Shown here in pieces: positions 2,114 through 28,137 of a stretch of DNA of 32,000 nt. Source of the DNA: Candidatus Harpocratesius repetitus. GTDB lineage: Archaea > Asgardarchaeota > Lokiarchaeia > Sigyniarchaeales > Promethearchaeaceae. How positions within the stretch are numbered: the stretch's first letter is position 1; every line of letters starts with the position of its first letter. A program made the position numbers and the translations under genes. Location of the stretch: positions 2,700,001-2,732,000 of the forward strand of contig JAIZWK010000001.1 in the NCBI GenBank assembly GCA_021498095.1, given 5' to 3'. Under the pieces are notes generated by a model, which saw only the letters and a list, made by a program, of their open reading frames with translations, did no database searches and was not told where the DNA came from.

Positions 2114-2496
2114 CTATTCAAGAGATAAAAAATGTTTGTGATTGTTATTATTGAAAGGTGGGATTGGATAGTATTTATTTCGTTTAAGTTAGGGTTGTTT
2201 GCTGATATGCAAGTTAAATTATTAAGAAGCACCAATGGAAAATATTTTGCGTGAATGACCTAATCCAAAATCATAAGATCAACACAACTATATAAATTTT
2301 CAGTAAATCAATTAAAATTAGCCCAATATTGAAATTGTAATATGATATTTGTATTCATTAAAATGAAAAAGATTTGATAAATTTTCAAAAACAATGATCA
2401 ATTAAATCTTTATTTTTTTTTTTGATATTCTTTCTTAATTTTATGAATCTTGTATTAGTAACCATATGTTTTGTCAGTCAAAAAACCATTTTTGCT

Positions 2497-4153
2497 TGTC
2501 ACAATTTGTCATCATATTCACATCATATAAATATAAAAAAAAGGATTCTTATTCTTTAATCCTAAGTCGAATTATACAGGAAGTTTCATAAGCAACTTGT
2601 TTTGGTGATAAATATAAAGTTCCTGTCCATCAGCAGATTCTCTGACTAGGATCTGCTGTCCTTTCATCTTGTACGAGATATAATAATATTTTCCTTTATA
2701 TCCAAATGATCCGTTATAAGAAATCTTTCTCGTTTGAGTTTTATTTCGTGAACTACTTGAAGGACTTTTAGAATGAGAGATAATACACTGTTGGCCACGA
2801 AAGATATCGATTTTTGATGGTGATATCCATATTTCTACTTCTAAACCTGCATATCCAGGCGGAATAGCAAATTGTTGTCCATGATAACTTATTAAATTTG
2901 ATTTCGTTACTTTTCGTGTTTCTCTTTCAACAATCCATCTATCCCAATTAAGTTGTACCTCTAATGGGCGATCAATTCGATTTTGTTTCCCAAAATAGAC
3001 TTTACTTGGTGAACTACGATTTGGTAAACCTCGATGTCGATGTTTTGTATTGTAAAATTCTATCCATTTTTGAAGCATTTGATTGAACTCTGTCAGAGTA
3101 ATGGTTGGATCTTGCTTAATTTGATATCGAACTTCAGATAGAAACATAGTTTTAACCGTTCCAAAGAAACGTTCGAGCTTACCTTTGGTTTGTGGATGTC
3201 GGGCACGCGCAAACACAGGTCGAATATCCAATAGTTTAAGAATCCGTTCATATTTTGATCCTAAATTTCCAAGAATATTTTTGAACTGAGTGCCATTATC
3301 CGCCAAGATCTCTAATGGACGACCGTACTTAGAGATTGCTTGCCGCAATAACTCAATAACATGTCCTGATTTTTGATCAGTTGTGTAAAAAGCGGCAACA
3401 ACAAATCGAGAACAGTCATCAAGCAAGGTGAAAAGAAAGAGGGACCCTAAATGACCAATTGTCTGAGCACCAGCAATGTCAATTTGCCATAATTCATTAG
3501 GACTCTCTCGTTCAAATGCATTATAACCCCTGCGGTATTCCGTCGAAATTCTTCCTAGTCCTTTCTTCAATAAATGTCTTCGAATTGAAGTTAACGAGGG
3601 AATTTTCGAAAATCCTTCTTTGATAAGCAAATCAGAAATGATTTGTGCAGTTCTCTTGCTATTTTCTTGTTTTAAATCAACAATCCGATTCCATACTTCA
3701 TTAGGAAATATAGAACGCTTTTGACATAGATTTGGTTTTTGAGAACGACGGGAAATATTCCCACTTTTTGCGATTTTGAGCCATCTGTACACCGTTCGAA
3801 TAGAACAGTGTTCCATGTCAGCAATTTCTTGAATAGATTTTTTTTGATGATAATATTGATGCAAAATCCGTTCAATAAGGTTGGTTTTTCCTTGATCCTT
3901 TGATTTTATCATAGAAAAATCCCCTTATCACAAAATATGTGAATAATTAACAGTTAACGCCTAATAAATAATAGATCATGTGAAAAGTGCAGAAGATTGG
4001 GATCATTTTCGTGTTTAAATTTGCATTTTCTTCGATTATGAGATGTCAATTTAATGGTTGTTGTTACAGCAACCGTCAAAAAAAATAAAGAAAAAAACCA
4101 AATTTGTGCCAGTTTTTTGTCAGTCACTAGGTGGTCAACGACAATTGTGGACA
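2497..4153 (-). mobile_element. IS481-like insertion sequence (ends approximate)
   Basis: Single DDE transposase gene. Candidate TGT-initial imperfect inverted ends are TGTCACAATTTGTCAT (2497) and the reverse complement TGTCCACAATTGTCGT (4153). No clean target duplication was found. The CDS looks more GC-rich than its flanks. Confidence 0.6.
2572..3912 (-). CDS. IS481-family/rve DDE transposase with N-terminal HTH and duplicated C-terminal Mu-transposase-like beta-barrel
   Basis: HTH: SIQEIADMEHCSIRTVYRWLK. Catalytic motifs: ELWQIDIAG (D1), ILADNGTQF (D2), HPQTKGKLERFF (E). Also YNTKHRHRGL and two TRK(V/I)..SY.G repeats at the C-terminus. Confidence 0.9.
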   Translation of the reverse strand: MIKSKDQGKTNLIERILHQYYHQKKSIQEIADMEHCSIRTVYRWLKIAKSGNISRRSQKPNLCQKRSIFPNEVWNRIVDLKQENSKRTAQIISDLLIKEGFSKIPSLTSIRRHLLKKGLGRISTEYRRGYNAFERESPNELWQIDIAGAQTIGHLGSLFLFTLLDDCSRFVVAAFYTTDQKSGHVIELLRQAISKYGRPLEILADNGTQFKNILGNLGSKYERILKLLDIRPVFARARHPQTKGKLERFFGTVKTMFLSEVRYQIKQDPTITLTEFNQMLQKWIEFYNTKHRHRGLPNRSSPSKVYFGKQNRIDRPLEVQLNWDRWIVERETRKVTKSNLISYHGQQFAIPPGYAGLEVEIWISPSKIDIFRGQQCIISHSKSPSSSSRNKTQTRKISYNGSFGYKGKYYYISYKMKGQQILVRESADGQELYIYHQNKLLMKLPV

Positions 4154-4474
4154 TTCATAAAAAAACTGAATTCTTATTTGGTTTTATACTGTCATTTCTT
4201 AATGGTTGTTAACAAATCTTGTAAATATCGGTGATTAATTTCTTGAAATTCTTTAGAATATGTAAATTTACAAATATCCTTGAGATTAAGCCAATTTCCA
4301 TATTATCATAATTTGAATCAAAAAAGTAGGTTTTTGGCACATATTTATAATTAAAATGCCCTTTTATGGGAAACTTTAAGTATGAATTCATGTTCATGTA
4401 AATTAATCAAACACTGACACCTTTGAAATATTCTTTTAGAACGGAATGATTAATATTACGGAGATTTTATTGTA

Positions 4475-5548
4475 ATGGCAGAAAATAAAAACCTAACTCC
4501 AAATGAAGAGCGAGTACTGTATGGTATCGTCCAATTCCCAGAAAAAAATGATAAAGAATTAGCTGCATTACTTCAGATGAAAGACTCAACCTTAACATCT
4601 ATAAAAAAAAGGCTGGAGCAAAATGAATTTTTTTCATATCATTTCATTCCACAATTGAATCGTTTGGGTGTTGAGCTTTTAGGAATCATCTTCACTTCTT
4701 TCAATCCAACTATTGATTTTGAAGAACGAGTAAGAATTACTAAGGATAAAATTGAAAGTGCACAAGAAATATTTTATTCCGTTGGTGCCCCTGAGATGGG
4801 TTTTTCGTTGAGTTTTACTCAAAATTATAGTAATTTTTGTGCAATAAACGAAAAAAGAACTGAAACATTTGGTGAAAAAGGTTTATTAGAAAAAGAATTC
4901 CCGCGAGAAGTAATTTTTCCCTTTCAAATTAGTTCCATTGATGAATTTTTTGATTATTCACGTTTATTTTATCATCATTTTTCACATTCTTTACAAGGAA
5001 TTACACTACAACCATCAATTACTAAACCATGGTTTAGTCCTCAATCAGAAATTACATTAAATGATAAAGAAAAAAAGGTTTTTATTGCCTTAATTGAAAA
5101 TCCTAAGGCGACTATGCAAGAAATAGGAGAAAAAGTAGATCTTTCAAGACATACAGTTGCTAGAATGAAAAAGAAATTCTTTAATGAAGATCTAATTCGA
5201 ATAAAAGTCATTCCAAATTTAAAAAAAATTGGTTTTAAACTTTTAGTCTTTTATCACTTAAAATTTAGTCCAACTGCAAAAATAAATAAAGATATCATAC
5301 AGCAGTTAAATTCTCCTTCAACTCTTTTCTGTGCACATCGAAAATTTACTGCAGTAATTATCAGTGCTTATCCGGAATATTCTGCATATAAAGAAGATAA
5401 AGTTCGAAAATTAACGTTTTTGAAGGAAAATAATATCTTAAATTATACACCTTCGCCTCGAAAATATGTATTTGAACAGATGCAGGTTATCAAAGATTTT
5501 ACTTTTTATGATATAACAAAAAAGATTCTTGGATTTCCTTTAGAATAA
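4475..5548 (+). CDS. Transcriptional regulator with two winged-HTH (Lrp/AsnC/MarR-like) modules
   Basis: Internal duplication: LTPNEERVLYGIVQFPEKNDKELAALLQMKDSTLTSIKKRL...PQLNRLG and LNDKEKKVFIALIENPKATMQEIGEKVDLSRHTVARMKKKF...PNLKKIG. Confidence 0.8.
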   Translation: MAENKNLTPNEERVLYGIVQFPEKNDKELAALLQMKDSTLTSIKKRLEQNEFFSYHFIPQLNRLGVELLGIIFTSFNPTIDFEERVRITKDKIESAQEIFYSVGAPEMGFSLSFTQNYSNFCAINEKRTETFGEKGLLEKEFPREVIFPFQISSIDEFFDYSRLFYHHFSHSLQGITLQPSITKPWFSPQSEITLNDKEKKVFIALIENPKATMQEIGEKVDLSRHTVARMKKKFFNEDLIRIKVIPNLKKIGFKLLVFYHLKFSPTAKINKDIIQQLNSPSTLFCAHRKFTAVIISAYPEYSAYKEDKVRKLTFLKENNILNYTPSPRKYVFEQMQVIKDFTFYDITKKILGFPLE

Positions 5549-6088
5549 TTAATTTAGACGATCAATTAAATCCGATGTATAAGATATCCAAAGCTTGATA
5601 TATGATCGAAATTCATCCATATTTTTAAATTCAACTTCAATCAAGTTAAAATCAGCAGGCAATACCTTAATATTTGGGTTCACTCTAAAGAATCCTTTTT
5701 TTAAAACTTCAAAAAGGTATTCAGAATTATTCATATTGCATTCGATTTTGAAAACTAAATTTGATTTTTTTGTTTTTTGATTAGATTGAGTTTGTTCAAT
5801 TGAAGTTAATAATTTTTCAAAATTTTTATTGATTATTGGAGGATTTTCTTGAACATCTTTTAATTTTCGAGAAATAATTTCTGAATCTGCAATTTTTTCA
5901 AAAATATTTTGATAACGTGCGATAAAAAGAAAACCTTCTTCAATTCCTTCAATATAGAAAGGAATTTGATTGGCATGATAAAGATTATTCAAATAATCAA
6001 AATGTTTATGAACACCTTTGAAAATAATGGGAAAATTACTTGAAATTTTAAGCACTATAGGTTCTTCTACTTTATTTCCCTCATTCAT
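5549..6088 (-). CDS. Hypothetical protein
   Basis: 179-aa ORF with host-like composition that abuts the convergent regulator gene. No motif recognised. Confidence 0.6.
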   Translation of the reverse strand: MNEGNKVEEPIVLKISSNFPIIFKGVHKHFDYLNNLYHANQIPFYIEGIEEGFLFIARYQNIFEKIADSEIISRKLKDVQENPPIINKNFEKLLTSIEQTQSNQKTKKSNLVFKIECNMNNSEYLFEVLKKGFFRVNPNIKVLPADFNLIEVEFKNMDEFRSYIKLWISYTSDLIDRLN

Positions 6089-6202
6089 TGTTTACCCTCT
6101 TTCATTTAGGGTTATCTCGCTCAATTTAAAAAATTTTTGGGAATTTTTATTTTAATTAAAAAAAAATAATCGTTTTGATAATAATTATCATCTATTTTAT
6201 TT

Positions 6203-6400
6203 TTAGCCTCCACCAAACATATGTAAAGCTAATACATTATCACCATCTTTAATTTGTGTTTTTTCATATTCTTCTGGAGGTATATAAATATTATTAATTT
6301 TTACTACAATTTCTGGGAATGTATAACGCTTTAATTCCAAAAGCTTTTTGACTGTTAAACCTTCAAACCATTCAAAATCTCTATTATTAACTTGAATCAT
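6203..6400 (-). CDS. ThiS/MoaD-family (ubiquitin-like) sulfur carrier protein
   Basis: MIQVNNRDFEWFEGLTVKKLL...VVKINNIYIP...IKDGDNVLALHMFGGG: 65 aa with a C-terminal di-Gly. The likely start is ATG at 6400. The longer track ORF extends into element C. Confidence 0.9.
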   Translation of the reverse strand: MIQVNNRDFEWFEGLTVKKLLELKRYTFPEIVVKINNIYIPPEEYEKTQIKDGDNVLALHMFGGG

Positions 6401-6457
6401 TTTATTCTCAAGTAATGAAATAATTGAAAATTCATAATTTTTACCACAATATCTTAA

Positions 6458-6746
6458 GAGGTTATAGCAGAATTCAAAAAATTGAAGGAAATCCGAAAAT
6501 CTTGCATTGACTATCCACAAAACCCAAATCTATCCCAATTTTAAATTTGTCGAAACATCGTTTAAGAAAAAAATATATAATTAAGTCAATAATTCAAAGA
6601 AAAATGATGGAAATGTGAAATTCTTGACCGCATTTAAGGGTTTAAAAGTGCCGACTCAAATAGTAATTGGATGCGCAGGAGTATTGTCGAAAATATTGGC
6701 CCAAAAGATAGAATTTGATTAAGATAAAAAAAATTGCTAGAGCCTC
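6458..6746 (-). mobile_element. 289-bp MITE-like element, copy C (divergent subfamily, opposite orientation)
   Basis: TTAA flanks both ends (6454-6457 and 6747-6750). The TIR is GAGGCTCTAGCAA versus GAGGTTATAGCAG (10/13). An ungapped alignment to copy A gives 160/289 (55%), with conserved blocks at identical offsets. Confidence 0.85.
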
Positions 6747-6784
6747 TTAAAATCAAATTAATAATTTTATAAATAAAAAGATAA

Positions 6785-7073
6785 GAGGTTCTAGCAACTT
6801 CTTTATTTTTGACTGAATTACCATTTAATTCTTTCATTTCCCGACAATAATCAAATTTATCCAAGAATTATTTCAGTCGGCAAAAATAAACTTTAGAAAA
6901 TATAATTATGGATCGATTTTTGACTATTTTTAATCAAATTATAGTTGAAAATGATAAAAAAAGTTCTAAATTTTTGATCGACAAATTTCAAATTTGGATG
7001 GAATATTGGTAAATGCGTAAATTATGCAGGATTTCTTTTTTTTTTTTAATCTATCAAATGTTGATAAAATCTC
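6785..7073 (+). mobile_element. 289-bp MITE-like element, copy B
   Basis: ATAA flanks both ends (6781-6784 and 7074-7077). The TIR is GAGGTTCTAGCAAC versus GAGATTTTATCAAC (11/14). It is about 94% identical to copy A. Confidence 0.9.
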
Positions 7074-7128
7074 ATAAAGAATTGAAAAAAAAATTGAAGA
7101 AGTAATAATAAAAGAACATAAAATGATA

Positions 7129-9300
7129 TTATTGTAATGGCTTAATGATTTCAATTAATTCCGGTAAATCCATTCCAATCTTTTGTAAATGTTCAATTGT
7201 AGGAACTCCATTCTTATTCCAACCACGGCGTTCATAAACTGCATCCATCAATTTTTCATATTGTTCAAGTCGGTATTTTCTAACAATAGCAACTTTTTCC
7301 GCAATGGATTTTCCCGTCGGATCAATACCAATCAGTTCTTTCATTTGTTTATCGTATCTTTCTTCCCGGGATTTATATTCTTCTTCAGTAACAGGTCCTA
7401 CTGCACGATACGGAACTGCATCGTGTTCTCTAAGTCCTTTTCCTAAACGAATATTAAAAATACGTTGAAAATTATAGACACGCTCTGATTGCAAAATTAA
7501 TTTTTCAGGTGTTAATTTCTCACCTGTCACTCCCTCATATATCCAGCAATAATTCTCTACATGCTCAGGAACTTTTGCTGCCTCAGTAGGAGGATAATTC
7601 TTATTACTTGGGGGGGTTATATCGTTCCATGGTAATTTGCACAATCCAACTAAGCCAAACCATGTACGAAACATGGGAAAATAATGTAAAGCTTCAGCTT
7701 TATCCTCAAAACTTGGTATTTGGTTGTTTACTTGATCCATAAAAATCAACCATGCTTCATCATGCTGAGGACCCTTATTAGTAAAGCCGTATCCTCCTTG
7801 TTGAGCGAGAGATTCTTTACTTTGATATTCAGAATATTCCAATCCTTTCTGTTCCATACCAATATCATTTACGAAATTTGGATCAGCGCCATATTTTTCA
7901 ATAAATAATTTTTTCATTCTGAGAATCCCCTGACCAATTACAACACCAAAACCTTCGCCTCGAGCCATTTGATGCAAAATCTCTAAAACGGCAGCGCTGT
8001 TTCCGAATTTAAGTTCAATTCCACCTGTTATTTCAGAATTAAGTATACCATTTTCGTAACATTCCATCGCAAATGCAGTGCTGGTGGCAAATGAAATTAT
8101 ATCAATACCGTATGTATCACAGTAGAAATTAGCTTCTAAAATAAACTGAGGATCAAAACAGCCTAAGTTTGCACCTAATCCTGCAGCATTTTCATATTCT
8201 GGCCCATCAACAGTAACCTTTTGACCCGCATAAGGCCCAGTCTTTAATTCAAATTTATCTGCAGCTTTAGAACAAGCCATTGAACACCCGTACCAGCATC
8301 CATCAGGCAAACCTTGAGTTAAGTAATTGTCACGAAACACATTGGAATATATCTTTTTTGCATCTGGATGGCCTCCAAATTTAAAGTTGTGAGTGGGGAG
8401 CAAATCATATTCATCCATAATTTCAATAATATTTGCAGTTCCAACTTGGCGCATTCGATTTTGTTTATCGTCATATTGTTGAATTTCACGATGCAATCGT
8501 AATCCTGCCTTGTTAATTAATGCTTTATTAACAGGATTGTTAAGATTTCCTTTAGTGGCTTTATTTTTGATTACAATTGCTTTAATCTTTTTATCTCGAA
8601 ACACACGGCCAATTCCACCCCGTCCCGCTTGTTTTACTCGAACTACTTTTCGACGAGGATCGTAAAATGAAAAGTTCAGCATTCCCATTCGAACAAATTC
8701 TGCGGCTTTTCCAGATGAAACGACAGAAATATTTCTTTTATCATATTCATCATCAGCGTACATTTCGGTTAGCTGTTCCGCCAATACATGACTATCAATT
8801 GCTTCTAAAGGAGCTTCTTCAATTTTTATTGAACCTGATGTTCCATCAATGAAAATTATTATGTCATTTTTTGCTTTTCCTTGAATTTCAAGTGCATCCC
8901 AGCCAGCAAATTTTAGAAAAGGTCCAAAATATCCTCCTACATTACTATCAATAACAATATCTGTTAATGGTGAAATCGATACAAGTAAAGATTTACCCGC
9001 CCCAGGATATTGAGTAATACCACAAATTGGTCCAGTACCGATGACAATCTCGTTTTCAGGATCATGCCATTTTGTTGTATTTTTAACTGCTTTCCAGAGC
9101 AAATATAAACCAAATCCTTTTCCTCCAATGAATTTTTCTTTCATTTCTGGAGTAACATCTTTTGATTCAATAACATTATTAGAAATGTTAATGTAAAGTG
9201 TTCGATTGCAATACCCTTTTTCAATGGGTCGTAATTCATAATTCCACTCTTTTAACAAAGTTCGGGCTTCTTTTAGTTTTTTAATACTTTCATTCTCCAT
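7129..9300 (-). CDS. aor: Tungsten-containing aldehyde:ferredoxin oxidoreductase family enzyme
   Basis: FIGGKGFGL, DSNVGGYFGPFLKFAGWDALEIQGK, QAGRGGIGRVF, CWYGCSMAC, DGPEYE, CDTYGIDIIS, MEQKGLEYSEY, GPQHDEA, VGLCKLPW, YERRGWNKNGVP. The start is probably MENESIKK at 9300. Confidence 0.93.
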   Translation of the reverse strand: MENESIKKLKEARTLLKEWNYELRPIEKGYCNRTLYINISNNVIESKDVTPEMKEKFIGGKGFGLYLLWKAVKNTTKWHDPENEIVIGTGPICGITQYPGAGKSLLVSISPLTDIVIDSNVGGYFGPFLKFAGWDALEIQGKAKNDIIIFIDGTSGSIKIEEAPLEAIDSHVLAEQLTEMYADDEYDKRNISVVSSGKAAEFVRMGMLNFSFYDPRRKVVRVKQAGRGGIGRVFRDKKIKAIVIKNKATKGNLNNPVNKALINKAGLRLHREIQQYDDKQNRMRQVGTANIIEIMDEYDLLPTHNFKFGGHPDAKKIYSNVFRDNYLTQGLPDGCWYGCSMACSKAADKFELKTGPYAGQKVTVDGPEYENAAGLGANLGCFDPQFILEANFYCDTYGIDIISFATSTAFAMECYENGILNSEITGGIELKFGNSAAVLEILHQMARGEGFGVVIGQGILRMKKLFIEKYGADPNFVNDIGMEQKGLEYSEYQSKESLAQQGGYGFTNKGPQHDEAWLIFMDQVNNQIPSFEDKAEALHYFPMFRTWFGLVGLCKLPWNDITPPSNKNYPPTEAAKVPEHVENYCWIYEGVTGEKLTPEKLILQSERVYNFQRIFNIRLGKGLREHDAVPYRAVGPVTEEEYKSREERYDKQMKELIGIDPTGKSIAEKVAIVRKYRLEQYEKLMDAVYERRGWNKNGVPTIEHLQKIGMDLPELIEIIKPLQ

Positions 9301-20161: not shown

Positions 20162-20911
20162 ATGGAGACAGAAGAAATCCCCGATCCTATAGTGATCTAT
20201 GATAAATATGCCAAAATATCTCATCCTGGGGAATATAAAGGCGGATTGATAATAAAATTACAAAATCAAATTGTTAAAATGATTTTCTCCGATCATGTAA
20301 TATTAACAGAAAATTCAATAGACATTTCAGGATTGGCTGTAGGAATCCGTAACGGACGCGGATTTTCCTCTGAACAAAATTTGCATTTAAATTCTTTTAA
20401 TGATATAATCTATATTGTCCGTTTGGAACCTGAAATTATTAAAGAATTTGATAATGCCCGATTTTCAGCAATTTATCCAAATATCGTACGCTTAATGCAT
20501 ACTGCTTTACTTTATCATAAATTAGGTTATCGAATAATTGATCATTTAGATTTTGTAGCAGGTGAAATTTTACACCGACCAGTAGCCATTTTAAAGAATC
20601 ATGGATTAATTATCGGGGACCGATTGGTAGGAGATGAAGATATGCATTTAGTCTTCTATGACTGTATTATCATAGGAGGTATACCATATATGGATGAAAA
20701 GGAAAAAGATTTAGATAAATCTGATAAATCAATTGAATCAGAACAAAAGATCCAAGATCCAAGATTCGATGAACATCAATTAGAAAATTCAGATAATATT
20801 CCAAAATCAGCTTCCCTTGAATCAAATATCTTAATTTCTTATGAACATTTCATGATGTTTCCAATTGAGCAGATTGAAACGATATTTTTGCTGGGAACGG
20901 AGAATTTTTAA
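20162..20911 (+). CDS. Hypothetical protein
   Basis: 249-aa ORF divergent from the ATPase gene, with a charged low-complexity insert. No family recognised. Confidence 0.65.
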   Translation: METEEIPDPIVIYDKYAKISHPGEYKGGLIIKLQNQIVKMIFSDHVILTENSIDISGLAVGIRNGRGFSSEQNLHLNSFNDIIYIVRLEPEIIKEFDNARFSAIYPNIVRLMHTALLYHKLGYRIIDHLDFVAGEILHRPVAILKNHGLIIGDRLVGDEDMHLVFYDCIIIGGIPYMDEKEKDLDKSDKSIESEQKIQDPRFDEHQLENSDNIPKSASLESNILISYEHFMMFPIEQIETIFLLGTENF

Positions 20912-20948: not shown

Positions 20949-21791
20949 TTAAAGAAAGAAATCTTCTTGATTTTTATAAAACGCTTCAATTAGCGCATTA
21001 CCTGTTAATTCCTCATCACACACAATTTGCTCTATTCCTAATCTCTTCAAATGTTTAATATTTTCTTCATTTTGTAAATTAACACTTATTCTTACATCAA
21101 TATTTAGACTTTGAATAGTCATTGCAATCAAAACGGCTTCAGCATCATCTTCAACAACAATAATTGTTTGTTGTGCTTTTTCAATTCCAGCTCTTTTTAA
21201 TATTCGTTCTTCTTCAGGATTTCCTCTAATAAATTCAACAACTTTTGGTAAATCAAACGGTCGGTCTGTAATATCTGAAATTAAAACATAATTATGATCT
21301 CCGCCAAGATCACCAGGTAAATTCCTAAGAAAATGTCGTACTTTTGGATTCCAACCTATCAAAATAATATGATTTGAGAATTTAATTTCACGATCCCCCT
21401 TTAATTTTTGAAAAATATGAACATATACAAATTCTACGAATAATAAAGTGATACCTAAACCAATCCACATAAAAATAGTGGTTAATAGCCATGTTCTGAT
21501 ACTACTTGGTGGAACTAAGCCAGAACCAGTATTGGTTAATGTATCTGTCGCCCAATATAAGCCTAAATAATAAGGAATTCCTTCAAGAGAAGAATAAATT
21601 GCAGCTAATATCAGATTTAATGAAAATACAATTATAAATACTTTTAACATTAAACTCCGTGCAATAAATTTCCCAAGTATAATCAATCGCTTCTTAAATT
21701 CTGAAGTTTTTGAATTCATATTTCCTTTTTTAGGTGATGAAAGTTTTTTATTACTTTCTGTTGAAGGATATCTTTCTCTCGATTTAGGCAT
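20949..21791 (-). CDS. Two-TM potassium-channel-like protein with RCK (TrkA_N) domain
   Basis: TM1, then pore helix YWATDTLTNTGSGLVPP, then TM2. RCK domain: NHIILIGWN, FIRGNPEEERILKRAGIEKAQQTIIV, DAEAVLIAMTI. Confidence 0.88.
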   Translation of the reverse strand: MPKSRERYPSTESNKKLSSPKKGNMNSKTSEFKKRLIILGKFIARSLMLKVFIIVFSLNLILAAIYSSLEGIPYYLGLYWATDTLTNTGSGLVPPSSIRTWLLTTIFMWIGLGITLLFVEFVYVHIFQKLKGDREIKFSNHIILIGWNPKVRHFLRNLPGDLGGDHNYVLISDITDRPFDLPKVVEFIRGNPEEERILKRAGIEKAQQTIIVVEDDAEAVLIAMTIQSLNIDVRISVNLQNEENIKHLKRLGIEQIVCDEELTGNALIEAFYKNQEDFFL

Positions 21792-21917
21792 AAATCTTCT
21801 CTTCTATTATAGGGTATTGATTTAAATGTTGATATAAAAAAAAATTGTTTTCCTTTAGATTCTTTGGTTCACTTGAATTCACCTATAAATTCAACTTCTG
21901 ATATATTTAAGAAATCA

Positions 21918-24215
21918 CTAACGTTTTACACATTTCCCCTTAACTATATAAAAAGATTTGCAATTACTACAAAATCCTTCACCAGTTTGATTATTCAAGC
22001 CATGAGTCCAACAAAGAGGACAGATATAATAATAAAAACGATGACCATTTTTTGAAGTGCTAATTTTTACGATGTTAAAAGAGCATATAGAACAAGTTGC
22101 TTTTAGTAAATGTGGAGTTCCTTTTTTTGGCAAACTTAAATATGTTTGGCATTTGGGATCTTCGCATACTAAGAACTTCTTCTTTTTTTGAGGACTTATT
22201 ACTAATTTCATATGATGAGTTTTACATTTTGGGCAAAATGAAGTTGATAAAGCAGGTGTCGAACCTTTTTTTTGAGATGAAATTATATTTGTATTTGTAT
22301 TTGTATTTAAGTTTGCATTTGTTGATGAACTACTTTTTTGTTTAGAAGAAGTGATTATCTTATTATTTCTACCTCTAATTATATTGCCTGTGCTTTGAAT
22401 CGGCTGAATCTTCGAAACAATTTGTGATTTTTGAGCTCGAAATAAATCGAATAACTTTAAAAATTCTAATTTAATGGAATCTACTACATCATTATATTTT
22501 ATTTGCTGATTCTTTACTTCTTCTAATAATTTTTCCACTTTAGCGGTAAAAGATGGTTCTAAAAATGGTTTCCAAATGTTTTTAAGCGCATCAATTAATA
22601 AAAATCCAAAATCCATTAAATATATAGATCTTCCTTTGCGTTGTATATAGCTTCGATCAATTAAAATTTGTATAATCGCAGGTCGGGTAGATTTGGTTCC
22701 AAGATTTTTTTGCTCCATTAATTGTAGTAAACTTGTATCAGTATAACGAGGTGGTGGCTGAGTTTCTTTCTCTTCAAAATTAATCTTATTAATAGGAAAT
22801 TTAGGTTTTTTCAAGTTTGGATCAATATATTGAGTTATCATTGGCATTGGAGCTGAATATTTTGGGGAAAGAAATGGTGCAATAATGTAAAATCCTTGTT
22901 TTAATAAAGTTTTGAATTGTCCAAGAAATTTCTCTCCCTTAATATCGAATAATACCCGTGTTTCAGATTCTTCAGCTTTTTCACCAAACAATGCTAAATA
23001 ATGTCGAGTAATAAGATTATACACTTGTTCTTGCAGTTTATTTTCAAAAACATTAGCTGATGGTTCAAGTGATTTTAGGGGACTTATTGGAGAATGATCT
23101 CCTGCATTTTTGCGTCCTTGTCGAGGGTTTATCCGGTTATTTTTGAATAAATCTCTAGTATAACCTCCGTAAAGCGAATGTGTTAAGAATTTTTGAAGTA
23201 CGCTTTTATGATCATAATTTGGAGAATAAACATCGGAATCTGTTCGAGGATATGTGATTAATTTGTTTAAATATAAATCTTCCAAGGTTTTTAGAGCTTG
23301 TTTGGCGGTGATTTTAAGATTTTTTGTAATTAATTGGAGTGCTCGGGAAGTATTCAAAGGTGTGGGCGGTAATATTTTCTTAGTTTTCATTGAAATTTGC
23401 TCTAATTGTGCAAATTTTTCATTAGATATTGTGTTATATATTCTTTCTGCAATTTTTTTATCAATAAAATTATTATTTTGATGATTTACACGTAAATTTC
23501 TATTTCCAATCTTAAGATCTGCAGAAATACTCCAAAATGGAGTAGGTTTAAAGTTTCTTATTATATCCTCCCGTAAATAAATAAGGTATAGTAGAGAGGT
23601 TTGGACACGCCCAATAGATGCAAATTTAATGTTAAGGGAATTTAGTATGTTTTTCAAAGTCAAAGAAACTTCTCTTGTGGCCGAAAAACCAATAATTGCA
23701 TCAATTTGAGCCCTTGCTTCACCAGAAAATGCCCATGACCATTTTGGAGGAATCAATTGGTTGAAAGCTTGTTGAATTGTCTTTTTTTGAAGATCATTTA
23801 GCCATAATTGTGCCAGTTTTATCTGCGGATTAGCTTGCTTAACAAAAGGAATAGCATCCATTAATCCAATATTACAACCTTCAACATCGGCATCTGTTCC
23901 AATAATACACGTATCACATTTTTTTCCATATTGTTTCAGAGCTGAAATATAAGCACCTGCATAAGTAGTGGGAATTTTTGCAATTGCATGGGGATCGGTT
24001 ATAATATCTCGAGGATCTTTGGCGGTCCATTTTTTATATGGAGCAGTATTTTCATATTGTTGAATATGTCCCCGTAAAGGTAAAACATATATATTTCTTG
24101 AAGGAATTTGATAAACAGATACTAATTTATTCACTTGCACTTTTTTTGTTTGTCCCAATGCTTCAGCAATTGCTTGTGCTGCTTTATTTTTCTCAGAAAT
24201 GATTAAAGTGCTCAT
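21918..24215 (-). CDS. topA: Type IA DNA topoisomerase (topoisomerase III-like) with C-terminal Zn ribbons
   Basis: TOPRIM: LIISEKNKAAQAIA and IGTDADVEG. Also SIGRVQTSLL, active site LITYPRTDS, DHSPISP, MEQKNLGTKSTR, and C-terminal CPKC..CEDPKC..CSIC..CPLC..CSNC. Confidence 0.95.
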   Translation of the reverse strand: MSTLIISEKNKAAQAIAEALGQTKKVQVNKLVSVYQIPSRNIYVLPLRGHIQQYENTAPYKKWTAKDPRDIITDPHAIAKIPTTYAGAYISALKQYGKKCDTCIIGTDADVEGCNIGLMDAIPFVKQANPQIKLAQLWLNDLQKKTIQQAFNQLIPPKWSWAFSGEARAQIDAIIGFSATREVSLTLKNILNSLNIKFASIGRVQTSLLYLIYLREDIIRNFKPTPFWSISADLKIGNRNLRVNHQNNNFIDKKIAERIYNTISNEKFAQLEQISMKTKKILPPTPLNTSRALQLITKNLKITAKQALKTLEDLYLNKLITYPRTDSDVYSPNYDHKSVLQKFLTHSLYGGYTRDLFKNNRINPRQGRKNAGDHSPISPLKSLEPSANVFENKLQEQVYNLITRHYLALFGEKAEESETRVLFDIKGEKFLGQFKTLLKQGFYIIAPFLSPKYSAPMPMITQYIDPNLKKPKFPINKINFEEKETQPPPRYTDTSLLQLMEQKNLGTKSTRPAIIQILIDRSYIQRKGRSIYLMDFGFLLIDALKNIWKPFLEPSFTAKVEKLLEEVKNQQIKYNDVVDSIKLEFLKLFDLFRAQKSQIVSKIQPIQSTGNIIRGRNNKIITSSKQKSSSSTNANLNTNTNTNIISSQKKGSTPALSTSFCPKCKTHHMKLVISPQKKKKFLVCEDPKCQTYLSLPKKGTPHLLKATCSICSFNIVKISTSKNGHRFYYYICPLCWTHGLNNQTGEGFCSNCKSFYIVKGKCVKR
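22286..22308. repeat. (TATTTG)x3.8 in-frame microsatellite encoding NTNTNTN in the topoisomerase linker
   Basis: Read directly. It matches SSSSTNANLNTNTNTNIISS in the protein. Confidence 0.8.
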
Positions 24216-24239
24216 TAATTTATAAACTCCAAGATCCTT

Positions 24240-24329
24240 TTTTTTAATCTAATTTTTTAATCTAATTTTTTAATCTAATTTTTTAATCTAATTTTTTAAT
24301 CTAATTTTTTAATCTAATTTTTTATCTAA
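24240..24329. repeat. 13-bp tandem repeat TTTTTTAATCTAA x6 plus one 12-bp variant that contains the helicase stop codon
   Basis: Perfect copies start at 24240, 24253, 24266, 24279, 24292 and 24305. The variant TTTTTTATCTAA is at 24318-24329 and includes CTA (24326-24328), the TAG stop on the minus strand. Confidence 0.92.
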
Positions 24330-27300
24330 TTTTTGATTTCTAAATCAAATGGAGAAAGTTTCCAGTATCCGTTTGAATTTTTAATATGTAAAAGAAGCTG
24401 GTTATGAATTGATTTAATCTTTTTTGTTTGTGGGGAATTATTTGTTGATTTAGAACATAATGTGGCTGAATCTCCAATAAAAATAATCTTAGTTCGAGCA
24501 CGACTGATTGCAACATTTAACCTACGAAAATCTGAGTTCAAGGAGCTTAATTCATGATCTGGTCTTGAATCCACAAAACTATAGATTATCACTTCTCTTT
24601 CATTTCCTTGAAATCTATCAACAGTATCCACTGTAATATCACTAAAAGATATATTTTTATTACTCATTTGAATTTCTTTAATTTGTTTATTTCTTAGATT
24701 TTTTTGAATAGTATTTACAAATTCAGATATTTTTGCATTATGCGCTCGAAATGCAGAAATTATTCCTATATTTTCTAAAATTTCATTAATTGCAATTAGC
24801 TTAATATTTGAACCATGAAGTGCAGTTAATAATTCTTTGATAATAACTTTGATTGTAGTTATTTCAGTTGTATTGTATTTTGATTCATTTCCAGCACCTA
24901 AATGATTATAGGATGAATCATATCCTTTCAATTGCTTTGTATCTAAGAAAATCATACTGTTAGATGAATTCCAAACAAATTTCCCAAGATTGGAAAGTGT
25001 AAGGAAAATATTTTGGATTTGAGTAGACTTTGGAATAAATTGAGAAAGAAAATCAAACCATGTAAAATCTCCGATATTCTTGCTGTTAATTGTACCAGGA
25101 ATTAATTTATCTTCATAAAATGTGTGTGAAATAAACTGTGAAATCGTTTTATGCATTCTATATTGTGATTGTAGTAATGTAAAATTCGAAGTATTTTGAA
25201 ATCGAGGTAGAAGTCGCTCAAAAAGTGTTTTATTTAATCCAGACTGATAATCAAAATTCAATTTTGCAAATAGTGGATTATTAACTAAATTCTCTAAATT
25301 TTTATCATCATTAATAACTTCATATTGAGTTATTGGTGGTAATTGTTGATGATCTCCTACTAATACTCCTTTTTCTCCTTTTAACAAAGGAATTATTGCT
25401 CCAGGTTCCAAAATCTGCCCGGCTTCATCTAAAATCACCATAGCAAAGAAGTATGGTTCAAGTAATAATGATCCAACCATAGTTGTGGTTGTTGCAACTA
25501 CATCTACATTTTCTAGCAACAAACGCGCTTTTAATGGATCAACAGCTAAAATTTCGTTTTGATCATATAATTTTTTCTTATATGTACATAAAATTTCTAA
25601 ATTATGACTTTTAACAATTTTAGAATTAGAACTATGAACATTGCCGATGCGGATGCATTTGATTTTTGGATAGCGCTGAATCAATTTCTCTACTAAAAGA
25701 TCAACAGCTTTATTTGTAAAAGCACAAATTAACACAGGAATTTTTGGAGGGATATAGCGTTTTCGAGTTTTAAAAAAACGATCCAATGCATTTACTCGAT
25801 TTTTAGGTGGATTTTTGTTTTGTAGGTGATTATTTTGGTACATTTTAAGAAAATAGTGGATGATTTCAGTGATTACTGTTGTTTTTCCAGTTCCTGGAGG
25901 CCCTTGAATTAGTGCTAGTCGTTGAGCTTGTAGTGCACTATTAATAGCTTGTATTTGACTTTGATTTAAGTTATTTTTAGTCTCATTTTTATCTTCTTTT
26001 TCTTTTTCAAACTCAGAAATTGATGGAATTTTTTTAATTAATTTAGGATACTCTTTAAAAAGGAGTAAATCTTTGAGAAGTTGCTCATGACTTTGTTCTG
26101 GATTAAATGATGCTCTGATAAATACATCTAATGCTTGTTTATACTGCCAAATATGATAATTTGAGAAGGAAAAATCAATTCGATATTTTTGTTTTGCAAA
26201 ATCTTTTCCAAATTTTTCTAATGTCTGTGAAGTTTGAACGATAATGATTTCTGAATTGATTTCAGTTATTATTCCACTTATACTACCTACCTTGTACTTA
26301 TTTAATGTCTGTGGGGTGATTAATATATAATCACCTGAGCGAAATCGAGTTTTTTGATTTGAATTGGCAGCTGGTTTAGAAAATTGATATTGGAATGATT
26401 GATTTATCAAATTTTTTGACCTAGATTGTGAACAATCATCAATAATTAAGGTTAATCCCCCAATTGCTACACCTTTCTCTTCTTGAATCTGGATTTCGTT
26501 AAAACTCTTTAGCATATCGCGTTTAACAGCCAAAAATTCGTGATCAATTAAAAATTGAAACCAATCAGCATAAAATCGGATAAGTTTTAGATCTTTTTTA
26601 AATGTAGACTCAGAGATGGAACTTGTTTGAAAAATTATATCATTAATAGTTTGTTCGTTAGTTGATGCGCCAGATTTTAAATTTAATTGATAAAATTTAT
26701 CTTTATATAGATTTAAGTAAATTTTACATATTTTTTTTGCACTGCATTGAGCACAAGGTGTATCTGGTTTCTTTAAAGGAGTAAGTCCGACTAAAAAACT
26801 CCATAATTTATTTCTAATTTTCAATATTCGTAAAAAATCGGGAGATTGCAGCGCTATGGCTTTATTGGATGCGATTTCTTTGTTTTTGTTCGGTGGATTT
26901 AATGAATAATGTGAAAAACGCTCATTTGGGGGATGTCGCGGATATTCAATAAGAATCTCTTCGATATTCCATTGATATAAATCTTGCAAAATTGCCCCAT
27001 AAGTTAAACCTTGATAATATGCAATCATTTGAGATGCTCTTTTACTTCTTCCCGTTTTTGTTTCTATAATAGTACATCGTTCTTGTTTTAAATCTAAAAT
27101 AAATCTATCAATCCTTCCTTGTAATCCAATCACAGGTGATTGAACAAATTTTTCACAGAATATGTCAAAACGTGAAAATTTTTTTTGATAATCTTGCAAA
27201 TGAGTTCTTATAAATTCCAATTCATTTTCTAAAAAGTTTTCATAAAATTCATTAATAATATTCTTTTCTAATTTTCCTAAAATCACAAAATACTGCCAAT

Positions 27301-27895
27301 TTTGCGAGACTGCAATTTGAAAAGCACTTAATATATCTTGTTTAGTGGGAACCCGAAAACCATTTGAAGATTTCAGCTTGGGAAAGAGAATAGCAAGATA
27401 ATCATGAATTAAATTTCCCCACATCATGTATTCATTTGCTTCACTTGCTACATTAAAATAAAGATCAAGAAAGGATTGAATTTCGCAGTATTCATAACCT
27501 CCAATCCAACTAGAATTGATATATGTAAAGTTATCTAAAATGGCATGATAAATTTCCAAATAGCGCTGTCTTGATGGAAGAATCTTAAATATTCCTTTAA
27601 TAATAACCACAGTTATCGGAAAAAACGATTTTGGCAGTTCAGCTAATATATTAGCAATATCTTTATAGACAAACGCAAAAATTTCCTTTCCATTTGCATC
27701 TACTAAAAGAACAGTGGTAAATCCTTTTTCTTTATTTATTTGCAGAATTTTCGATATAGAGCAAAAAAGAGGTTTTTCATAAGTGATTTGTATGTCTCCT
27801 TTTTTATTTACCTCTTTGTTTTCATCTTTATCTTTATATTCATTAAATGTAACAGAAATTGGTTTATATTCTTGAATAAAATGTAAATCATTCAT
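24326..27895 (-). CDS. dna2: Dna2-like nuclease-helicase (putative OB fold, Fe-S PD-(D/E)xK nuclease, SF1B helicase)
   Basis: Nuclease: YEYCEI (Cys1), WGNLIHD, GLQGRIDRF...IIETKTG, YYQGLTYG, CAQCSAKKIC (Cys2-4). Helicase: IQGPPGTGKTT, CAFTNKAVD, ILDEAGQ, VGDHQQLPP, QYRMH, TVDRFQGNERE, RRLNVAISRAR. Confidence 0.88.
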   Translation of the reverse strand: MNDLHFIQEYKPISVTFNEYKDKDENKEVNKKGDIQITYEKPLFCSISKILQINKEKGFTTVLLVDANGKEIFAFVYKDIANILAELPKSFFPITVVIIKGIFKILPSRQRYLEIYHAILDNFTYINSSWIGGYEYCEIQSFLDLYFNVASEANEYMMWGNLIHDYLAILFPKLKSSNGFRVPTKQDILSAFQIAVSQNWQYFVILGKLEKNIINEFYENFLENELEFIRTHLQDYQKKFSRFDIFCEKFVQSPVIGLQGRIDRFILDLKQERCTIIETKTGRSKRASQMIAYYQGLTYGAILQDLYQWNIEEILIEYPRHPPNERFSHYSLNPPNKNKEIASNKAIALQSPDFLRILKIRNKLWSFLVGLTPLKKPDTPCAQCSAKKICKIYLNLYKDKFYQLNLKSGASTNEQTINDIIFQTSSISESTFKKDLKLIRFYADWFQFLIDHEFLAVKRDMLKSFNEIQIQEEKGVAIGGLTLIIDDCSQSRSKNLINQSFQYQFSKPAANSNQKTRFRSGDYILITPQTLNKYKVGSISGIITEINSEIIIVQTSQTLEKFGKDFAKQKYRIDFSFSNYHIWQYKQALDVFIRASFNPEQSHEQLLKDLLLFKEYPKLIKKIPSISEFEKEKEDKNETKNNLNQSQIQAINSALQAQRLALIQGPPGTGKTTVITEIIHYFLKMYQNNHLQNKNPPKNRVNALDRFFKTRKRYIPPKIPVLICAFTNKAVDLLVEKLIQRYPKIKCIRIGNVHSSNSKIVKSHNLEILCTYKKKLYDQNEILAVDPLKARLLLENVDVVATTTTMVGSLLLEPYFFAMVILDEAGQILEPGAIIPLLKGEKGVLVGDHQQLPPITQYEVINDDKNLENLVNNPLFAKLNFDYQSGLNKTLFERLLPRFQNTSNFTLLQSQYRMHKTISQFISHTFYEDKLIPGTINSKNIGDFTWFDFLSQFIPKSTQIQNIFLTLSNLGKFVWNSSNSMIFLDTKQLKGYDSSYNHLGAGNESKYNTTEITTIKVIIKELLTALHGSNIKLIAINEILENIGIISAFRAHNAKISEFVNTIQKNLRNKQIKEIQMSNKNISFSDITVDTVDRFQGNEREVIIYSFVDSRPDHELSSLNSDFRRLNVAISRARTKIIFIGDSATLCSKSTNNSPQTKKIKSIHNQLLLHIKNSNGYWKLSPFDLEIKN

Positions 27896-27928
27896 ATTAC
27901 TTTCGTTCCTTTTGAAAATAATTTTGGA

Positions 27929-27936
27929 TATATAAA
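27929..27936 (-). promoter_or_regulatory. Archaeal TATA box for the dna2-like gene
   Basis: TTTATATA on the minus strand, 34 nt upstream of the ATG at 27895. Confidence 0.5.
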
Positions 27937-27989
27937 TAATATTTGGCTCTGTAATTATTTTTTAAATTGATAAAAGAAGAATTTTCGAT

Positions 27990-28037
27990 TTTTTGCATTT
28001 TTGCATTTTTGCATTTTTGCATTTTTGCATTTTTGCA
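27990..28037. repeat. 8-bp tandem repeat TTTTTGCA x6 in the divergent promoter region
   Basis: Perfect copies start at 27990, 27998, 28006, 28014, 28022 and 28030. Confidence 0.92.
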
Positions 28038-28137
28038 TTTTTTGTTAATTCCAAAATTCAAAATTTTCAAACTATATATTTTTATACTTATCAGTTAAAG
28101 TAATTACCAAACAAGTTAAATATATGAGAGTGATTTA

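Follow-up and report, generated by a model that had tools for sequence, protein, structure and literature searches.

The genes described here lie in a 32,000-nucleotide (nt) stretch of the genome of Candidatus Harpocratesius repetitus, a member of the Lokiarchaeia (assembly GCA_021498095.1, contig JAIZWK010000001.1, positions 2,700,001–2,732,000), which we refer to as the window. On its minus strand, the gene for a Dna2-like nuclease-helicase of 1189 amino acids (P0001, 24326–27895) is followed, after a spacer of 110 nt (24216–24325), by the gene for a type IA topoisomerase of 765 amino acids (P0002, 21918–24215), an archaeal TopA or Topo III. Convergent to the topoisomerase gene lies, on the plus strand, the gene for a 249-amino acid protein without a Pfam family (20162–20911), here called X, which is kept beside the pair across the clade. 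An earlier note, made from the sequence alone, had taken the two minus-strand genes for a putative dna2-top3 operon and for a prokaryotic counterpart of the eukaryotic end-resection module. The coordinates and domains of both, and the Dna2 layout of the first in its predicted fold, were confirmed, as was the probable Asgard origin of the genome, the closest named protein to P0001 being one of Candidatus Harpocratesius sp. (90% identity). The operon was also borne out, in the sense of a conserved and probably co-transcribed pair; its equation with the eukaryotic module was not.

The assignment of P0001 follows from its open reading frame (ORF), its Pfam domains, and a full-length fold match to mouse Dna2 (PDB code 5EAN). 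Pfam places PDDEXK_1 (E 1.8e-9) at residues 153–391 and AAA_11 (E 1e-43) and AAA_12 (E 7e-39) at residues 642–1143, which mark a PD-(D/E)XK nuclease domain (26711–27523, minus strand) and an SF1B (Upf1-like) helicase core (residues 640–1150; 24446–25978, minus strand). The match to the Pfam Dna2 family PF08696 (residues 126–242) is borderline, with 21.7 bits by hmmscan against a cut-off of 22.4 and 22.7 bits in a six-frame search of the genome. The nuclease residues D263 (GRIDR), E278 and K280 (ETKTG), and Q295 and Y299 are, like C137 and the motif C381-x2-C384-x5-C390, fully or almost fully conserved when 9 or 29 homologues are aligned. The four cysteines bracket the nuclease and are invariant across the 29 sequences, which predicts an Fe-S staple split 1+3 around GRID...ETKTG, as the earlier note had proposed. 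Equally invariant among the 29 homologues are the helicase motifs, namely Walker A (GPPGTGKT, residues 665–672), DEAGQ (823–827), VDRFQG (1092–1097), and the arginine-finger motifs.

We modeled P0001 with AlphaFold from the 29-row alignment (predicted local distance difference test (pLDDT) 81.7, predicted template modeling score 0.85). In this model, an N-terminal domain (residues 35–120; 27536–27793, minus strand; pLDDT ∼90) comprises strands 35–37, 43–54, 59–65, and 71–77, helix 78–86, and strands 94–105 and 111–120; this β-rich arrangement with a single helix is consistent with an OB-like N terminus. In a Foldseek search of the PDB, the top three matches of the model are the mouse Dna2 structures 5EAN, 5EAW, and 5EAX (E 2e-49, ∼1226 columns), with template modeling scores of 0.65 by query and 0.73 by target and 18% identity in the structural alignment. 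The next matches (Ighmbp2, Upf1, and Sen1) cover the helicase half only. By sequence, P0001 matches Upf1 with 99.7 bits and mouse DNA2 with 86.8 bits, both in the helicase region only. The view of P0001 as a structural Dna2 look-alike that carries every catalytic motif is supported.

P0002 shows the Toprim and Topoisom_bac domains of the type IA core (Pfam, E 5e-96) and gave the single match in a genome search, making it the sole type IA topoisomerase of its genome. Among the NCBIfam models, those of archaeal topA fit best, with scores under their equivalog cut-offs. Residues E8, D108/D110/E112, the tyrosine Y322 (YPRTD), and the C-terminal cysteine pairs are invariant across 12 sequences. When searched against the PDB with phmmer, P0002 scores 207 bits with human TOP3B, 137 with TOP3A, 120 with Sulfolobus Topo III, and ∼100 with the bacterial enzymes.

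The spacer between the two genes contains a GGAG at 24227–24230 (minus strand), 11 nt before the topoisomerase ATG, which was confirmed by reading the sequence and is as such not kept in relatives. Most of the spacer is taken up by a 13-nt tandem repeat (24240–24334, minus strand) of 7.4 copies (Tandem Repeats Finder (TRF) score 183, 98% matches), which overlaps the stop codon of the Dna2-like gene. The repeat expansion claimed by the earlier note is thus present, its length of 95 bp slightly exceeding the 78 bp given there. This repeat does not occur a second time in the 4.36-Mb genome, and none of the spacers of relatives, which measure 11–45 nt and, in two genomes, 96–105 nt, contains it. 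Because the short spacers of relatives lack the repeat, the 110-nt spacer of the window is best explained as an ancestral short spacer of ∼20–45 nt inflated by a local expansion of the 13-nt unit.

The sense strand of the spacer has no T-tract, with at most three T in a row, in agreement with the earlier claim that a U-tract terminator is missing here; the minus strand also shows no terminator-like hairpin in the spacer and no T6 between 22740 and 25765 of the window. The first sense-strand oligo-T is a T9 tract ∼75 nt past the topoisomerase stop codon (21836–21844, minus strand). Oligo-T tracts are an established archaeal termination signal, and the T9 is likely to act as one. A spacer without T-tract and a T9 after the topoisomerase gene give a layout that fits one unit ending after the second gene. 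At the other end, the intergenic region upstream of the Dna2-like gene (27896–28137, minus strand) contains a TATA-like TTTATATA ∼33 nt before the ATG, a putative promoter element judged by its sequence and position. A σ70 promoter scan returned the same counts as expected from shuffled sequence, and the σ70 model is irrelevant for archaea. The promoter region also carries a perfect 8-nt tandem repeat, TTTTTGCA (27990–28042; 6.6 copies, 100% matches by TRF), a second simple-repeat expansion flanking the Dna2-like gene.

RNA data are available for Candidatus Lokiarchaeum ossiferum, a relative in the same family, whose locus is represented in four RNA-seq runs from a single metatranscriptomic study of 2025. 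In two of the runs, single contigs of 6398 and 6392 nt cover positions 2364–8731 of this locus (L042), that is, the Dna2-like gene, a 45-nt gap, the topoisomerase gene, and the convergent gene for X. The divergent gene upstream has zero coverage in these two runs, so that the long contigs are unlikely to stem from contaminating DNA. A 944-nt contig from a third run (5616–6559) spans the junction of the Dna2-like and topoisomerase genes. The contigs fit co-transcription of the pair, a contig not being proof of a single molecule.

The pairing is conserved in the window's GTDB family (f1), whose 14 species genomes include, judged by the NCBI names of their proteins, those of Promethearchaeum syntrophicum and L. 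ossiferum, each in a single contig. The Dna2-like gene is found in 12 and the topoisomerase gene in 13 of the 14 genomes, and both are adjacent and co-directional in nine of the 12 genomes with the Dna2-like gene (G000, G089, G094, G203, G204, G205, G207, G208, and G209), P. syntrophicum and L. ossiferum being among the nine. In G202, the locus is interrupted by contig ends, and in G210, an unrelated gene lies downstream of the Dna2-like gene. In G165 and the Promethearchaeota contig L064, the Dna2-like gene is followed by X, an ORF of 440–476 amino acids, and the topoisomerase gene on the opposite strand; all three conserved genes remain within 4 kb after this rearrangement. The pair is also kept, with a 27-nt gap, in a deep metagenomic branch (L063, a contig of 47.5% GC), where the Dna2-like protein is 29% and the topoisomerase 43% identical to those of the window. 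The upstream neighbors vary among genera and the pair stays. In P. syntrophicum and L. ossiferum, for example, a 1300–1370-residue ORF without a Pfam family and a Roadblock/LC7 gene lie upstream of the Dna2-like gene (L005 3639–7751; L007 1054–4965), a neighborhood absent from the window.

Outside this clade, the two genes were not found as a pair. A search with full-length P0001 matched only seven of 201 Asgard genomes; because it under-detected relatives, it was replaced by a profile of the N-terminal half together with Pfam PF08696. The N-terminal profile detects canonical archaeal Dna2 at E 1e-13 to 1e-18, and the combination finds Dna2-type genes in all 21 genomes of family f5 (Heimdallarchaeaceae by protein names), in six of seven of f14, in four of 10 of f22, and also in f24 and f27. 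The same combination found no Dna2-type gene in f2 (40 genomes, same order as the window), f7 (43), or f12 (19). In the f5, f14, f22, and f27 genomes where both genes could be placed, none has them adjacent; the distance is hundreds of kilobases, or the genes are on separate contigs. Adjacency is also absent from the Haloferax, Thorarchaeota, and Heimdallarchaeota contigs. The earlier note had named an adjacency unique to the window's genome as a result that would speak against its reading; the adjacency is not unique to this genome but is limited to f1 and one deep metagenomic branch. As an observation on the topoisomerase itself, no type IA topoisomerase match at E 1e-20 was found in the 19 genomes of f12 (72–91% complete), whereas nearly all other Asgard families have one.

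Protein X accompanies the pair as a third conserved gene. P. syntrophicum, L. ossiferum, G205, and the deep branch L063 all have a homologue of 33–46% identity next to the pair. In these, as in the window's genus, the gene for X (∼206–249 amino acids) is convergent to the topoisomerase gene, whereas in G165 and L064 it directly follows the Dna2-like gene. In the window's genus only (G000, G089, and G094), a channel-like gene with TrkA_N/RCK domains (20949–21791 of the window, minus strand) is inserted between the topoisomerase gene and X; P. syntrophicum has a 109-residue ORF in its place. Among 5.8 billion proteins, only 14 homologues of X were found. The structural model of X is all-β (pLDDT 79.8), and its C-terminal half gives weak, non-significant matches to Sm-like folds (E 0.02 or worse). 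Fold searches against the PDB and the AlphaFold clusters returned only these and an uncharacterized homologue, with no significant OB or Rmi1 match.

The reading that we prefer, and to which we assign a probability of roughly 0.6, is that of a lineage-specific two-gene transcription unit, in which the gene of a divergent nuclease-helicase of the Dna2 family precedes that of the sole type IA topoisomerase, with X nearby; the unit would act on forks or recombination intermediates and would have arisen within Lokiarchaeia. For the clade, the operon itself is well supported; the pair recurs in the nine family genomes and the deep branch L063, and the RNA contigs of L. ossiferum fit it. A functional link between the Dna2-like protein and TopA is plausible, because the pair is retained even where the proteins are only 29 and 43% identical, the three genes are still close to each other where the locus was rearranged, spacers are short, and a precedent exists in the contact between reverse gyrase and DNA2 of Pyrococcus abyssi, as cited in PMC8185306.

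Several observations weigh against this reading. The RNA data come from L. ossiferum rather than from the window's organism, and the contigs fall short of proving one transcript; an internal promoter may overlap the 3′ end of the Dna2-like gene, which is AT-rich. G165, L064, G210, and the deep branch P0027 have lost the operon form. The sister family f2 keeps TopA with the Dna2-like gene not found in its 40 genomes, so that TopA does not depend on the Dna2-like gene; there, the topoisomerase gene has unrelated neighbors. Furthermore, unrelated downstream genes of the window (AAA ATPase, B3_4, DtxR-like, and radical SAM) keep their synteny in three genera as well, so that plain block synteny could explain part of the conservation. 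The shared synteny and the unpartnered TopA of f2 weaken the functional link.

Taken further, these points lead to the explanation that the two are housekeeping genes that remain neighbors by descent in a slowly rearranging block, incidentally co-transcribed and without a common pathway. The unrelated B3_4, DtxR-like, and radical SAM genes of the syntenic block, a universal TopA that functions without the Dna2-like gene in f2, and the broken operon form in some members would all be expected on this account. It explains less readily why the pair persists while its upstream neighbors differ among genera, why it survives to a branch of such low identity and different GC content, and why the Dna2-like gene, X, and TopA are still together where the locus was rearranged. 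The very short spacers (11–45 nt) also argue against it. We regard descent without a shared function as rather unlikely.

If the two proteins of the preferred transcription unit do cooperate, the nuclease-helicase would thread a free 5′ end of single-stranded DNA through its Fe-S nuclease domain and move 5′ to 3′ by its SF1B motor, like mouse Dna2. In doing so, it would expose or trim single strands at lagging-strand flaps, stalled forks, or recombination intermediates. Strand passage by Topo III requires single-stranded DNA, so that the topoisomerase would act after the nuclease-helicase, unlinking or decatenating the intermediates that the latter provides. Co-expression would keep both enzymes in step, comparable with other pairings of a helicase with a type IA topoisomerase (RecQ–Top3 and reverse gyrase). 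The unit would most likely serve the processing of replication forks and recombination intermediates and not the main resection of double-strand breaks. Its origin would lie within Lokiarchaeia, independent of the eukaryotic arrangement of Dna2 with Sgs1–Top3–Rmi1.

A bolder version has the Dna2-like protein, Topo III, and X form a physical three-part machine of independent origin in Lokiarchaeia, an analogue of BLM–TOP3A–RMI or TOP3B–TDRD3 with a built-in nuclease. We consider such a machine doubtful. A complex prediction for L. ossiferum TopA (753 amino acids) and X (206 amino acids), each entered as an alignment, scored 0.00, which is evidence neither way. If true, the machine would be directly testable in the cultured P. 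syntrophicum and L. ossiferum; to our knowledge, family f1 holds the only cultured Asgard archaea.

The trio could also be read as a module for RNA or R-loops. Its targets would then be RNA or RNA–DNA hybrids instead of DNA ends or flaps, and its members a helicase-nuclease of the Upf1 family, a topoisomerase resembling TOP3B, and X as a possible Sm-like protein. By sequence, the helicase core of P0001 indeed scores slightly higher with Upf1, Smubp2, and Sen1 than with DNA2, and the best solved relative of TopA is TOP3B, which together with TDRD3 is active on RNA and R-loops (PMC10969213). The Sm-like matches of X would complete the picture; they are, however, the non-significant ones described above. 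Over its full length, moreover, P0001 matches the fold of Dna2 and not of RNA helicases, and an Fe-S PD-(D/E)XK nuclease is of the DNA-end type. The proximity of TopA to TOP3B has to be seen with the reservation that archaeal Topo III enzymes may all score nearer TOP3B for phylogenetic reasons. We rate a module of this kind as improbable.

The earlier note had gone further than an operon and saw a hint of an ancestral Dna2–Top3 unit. In its full form, this reading makes the pair the prokaryotic counterpart and relic of the eukaryotic long-range resection module of Dna2 and Sgs1/BLM–Top3–Rmi1, passed from Asgard archaea to eukaryotes. The full-length Dna2-like fold and the conservation of the pair in an Asgard family are compatible with such an ancestry. 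It also agrees with the stimulation of DNA2 resection by TOP3A–RMI1–RMI2 in eukaryotes (PMC10969213) and with the published Asgard Dna2 homologues related to eukaryotic Dna2 (PMC12680538), although our results suggest that these are of the canonical kind.

The sequence comparisons separate P0001 from the Dna2 proteins closest to those of eukaryotes. When residues 1–640 of P0001 were searched with phmmer against 1.84 billion representatives, 35 proteins were found, all of the long “Loki-type” and none canonical. A canonical Dna2 from Heimdallarchaeum (996 amino acids) matches mouse DNA2 with 206.9 bits, far above the next family, and aligns to animal DNA2 over 80% of its length. This protein also carries a C-terminal RING-like zinc finger, and its gene is convergent with an RFC-large/Rad17-like AAA+ gene (locus L049 3949–8526). 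In Thorarchaeota, a Heimdallarchaeota genome, and f22 (L053 1528–6206; L070 5001–9714; L071 5001–9649), a canonical Dna2 gene is followed within 0–40 nt by an Eco57I/N6-type DNA methyltransferase gene, which hints at a restriction- or defense-like role for that canonical subclade. The Dna2 gene of Haloferax has no relevant neighbors.

We calculated maximum likelihood trees of the Dna2 proteins (quick search, LG+C20), rooted on nuclease-less IGHMBP2-like helicases; the eukaryotes are represented by animal DNA2 only, and many rows are compositionally skewed. The nuclease-helicases are all united in a single clade (support 100) with two subgroups. One consists of the Loki-type proteins together with f27 and unnamed proteins (support 98, Shimodaira–Hasegawa-like approximate likelihood ratio test) and is sister to the canonical clade; one of these unnamed proteins is encoded on a contig of 68% GC that carries bacterial-type genes. 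The other subgroup joins animal DNA2 to the canonical archaeal Dna2 of Heimdallarchaeota, Thorarchaeota, and haloarchaea (support 81). A clade of animal DNA2 with the Loki-type proteins is rejected by the approximately unbiased (AU) test (p 7e-5), the tested group having been named after the first tree was seen.

The repair genes elsewhere in the genome point the same way. A nurA-herA operon (388 and 528 amino acids) lies at ∼2.552–2.555 Mb. A 1717-amino acid SF1B helicase protein, which has only helicase motifs in common with P0001, is encoded directly upstream of two genes, one for a phosphoesterase of the Mre11 type and one for an ATPase similar to SbcC/Rad50; the gaps measure 97 and 5 nt (L074 1433–11026; G000:C1:4087432–4097025). 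With these two operons, the genome offers candidates for the resection of double-strand breaks that are better than the Dna2-like/TopA pair. Of the partners that the earlier note had envisaged, RecQ was not found, the RecQ_Zn_bind domain having no match in the window's own genome and a positive control in eight genomes; for Rmi1, the family PF08585 gave no match with a control that was silent everywhere, which makes that search uninformative. A search for the Rad50 zinc hook likewise found no match although an SbcC/Rad50-like gene exists, and this negative is not meaningful. As further observations on these loci, nurA-herA lies directly behind the gene for a 1388-residue STAND/AAA ATPase, apart from mre11-rad50 (L073 4504–11439; G000:C1:2552504–2559439). 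At a separate locus (L072 9857–13840), an Upf1-like helicase is joined to a Zc3h12a/NYN ribonuclease domain in a 1327-residue protein, flanked by two ORFs (1253 and 1028 residues) without a Pfam family.

Taken together, these results speak against the pair as an ancestor of the eukaryotic module. The canonical Dna2 of Heimdallarchaeaceae reaches 207 bits with mouse DNA2 and P0001 only 87, and the canonical gene is never beside TopA. Animal DNA2 falls with the canonical proteins, TopA is nearer TOP3B than TOP3A by score, and the adjacency is confined to one clade. The missing RecQ domain, the presence of nurA-herA, and the linkage of another helicase to mre11-rad50 also count against a resection counterpart. 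We therefore rate this origin as very improbable. Finally, an anti-virus nuclease-helicase of the Mokosh or Prometheus type that stands beside topA by chance is hardly credible. In favor of such a protein are the PADLOC match to MkoA (243 bits) and the weak ones to ProA and Hhe, the bacterial-looking contig in the sister clade, and the Eco57I-type methyltransferase behind the canonical Dna2 of Thorarchaeota, Heimdallarchaeota, and f22. However, the defense matches span the common helicase core only, for which reason we rejected the defense call; P0001 has no DUF4011 or DUF3320 domain, and its gene is single-copy, vertically inherited with the family, and fixed among housekeeping genes outside any variable island.

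Both enzymes of the preferred two-gene unit are known; what we rate as new is an undescribed lineage-specific gene association, apparently co-transcribed, with a linked protein X. We found no description of a conserved Dna2-like/Topo III gene pair in the papers that could be searched. The pair provides a testable hypothesis for the cooperation of a 5′–3′ nuclease-helicase with a type IA topoisomerase in archaea. It also calls for caution in deriving the eukaryotic resection module from this pair, as the eukaryote-like Dna2 belongs to another lineage and is unlinked to a topoisomerase. Asgard archaea thus possess two or more separate lineages of Dna2 type, which differ in their gene partners.

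Compared with mouse Dna2 (5EAN, 5EAW, and 5EAX), P0001 shares the succession of an N-terminal β-domain, a PD-(D/E)XK nuclease stapled by four cysteines, a barrel, and an SF1B helicase. In contrast to mouse Dna2, its gene is in an operon with a topoisomerase gene, and the protein belongs to a sister clade rather than to the clade of eukaryotic DNA2. Canonical archaeal Dna2 (Heimdallarchaeaceae, Thorarchaeota, and Halobacteria; PF08696) has the same architecture and superfamily as P0001. Canonical proteins are shorter (∼900–1000 amino acids versus 1189) and score well above the Pfam cut-off (45–63 bits), whereas P0001 is borderline, and their genes neighbor an RFC-large-like gene or an Eco57I-type methyltransferase gene, never TopA. 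P0002, in turn, shares with Sulfolobus Topo III (PDB code 6K8N) and human TOP3B the Toprim domain, the type IA core with its catalytic tyrosine, and C-terminal zinc ribbons, and by score is nearer the human enzyme (207 bits) than the one from Sulfolobus (120 bits). For eukaryotic Top3, two origins have been reported (PMC12680538).

As a system, the pair resembles the eukaryotic machinery of Dna2 with Sgs1(BLM)–Top3–Rmi1 in that a 5′–3′ nuclease-helicase is coupled with a type IA topoisomerase. It differs from this machinery in that the link is a genetic one, through the operon, that RecQ was not found in the genome, and that the components are probably not specific orthologues. Within archaea, the interaction of reverse gyrase with DNA2 in P. 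abyssi, as far as it is described through its citation in PMC8185306, offers a parallel, as an archaeal type IA topoisomerase is associated with a Dna2 protein there as well. By the same source, that contact was seen in a pull-down of reverse gyrase with a canonical Dna2 from a hyperthermophile, whereas here a divergent Dna2-like protein of mesophilic Lokiarchaeia shares an operon with Topo III.

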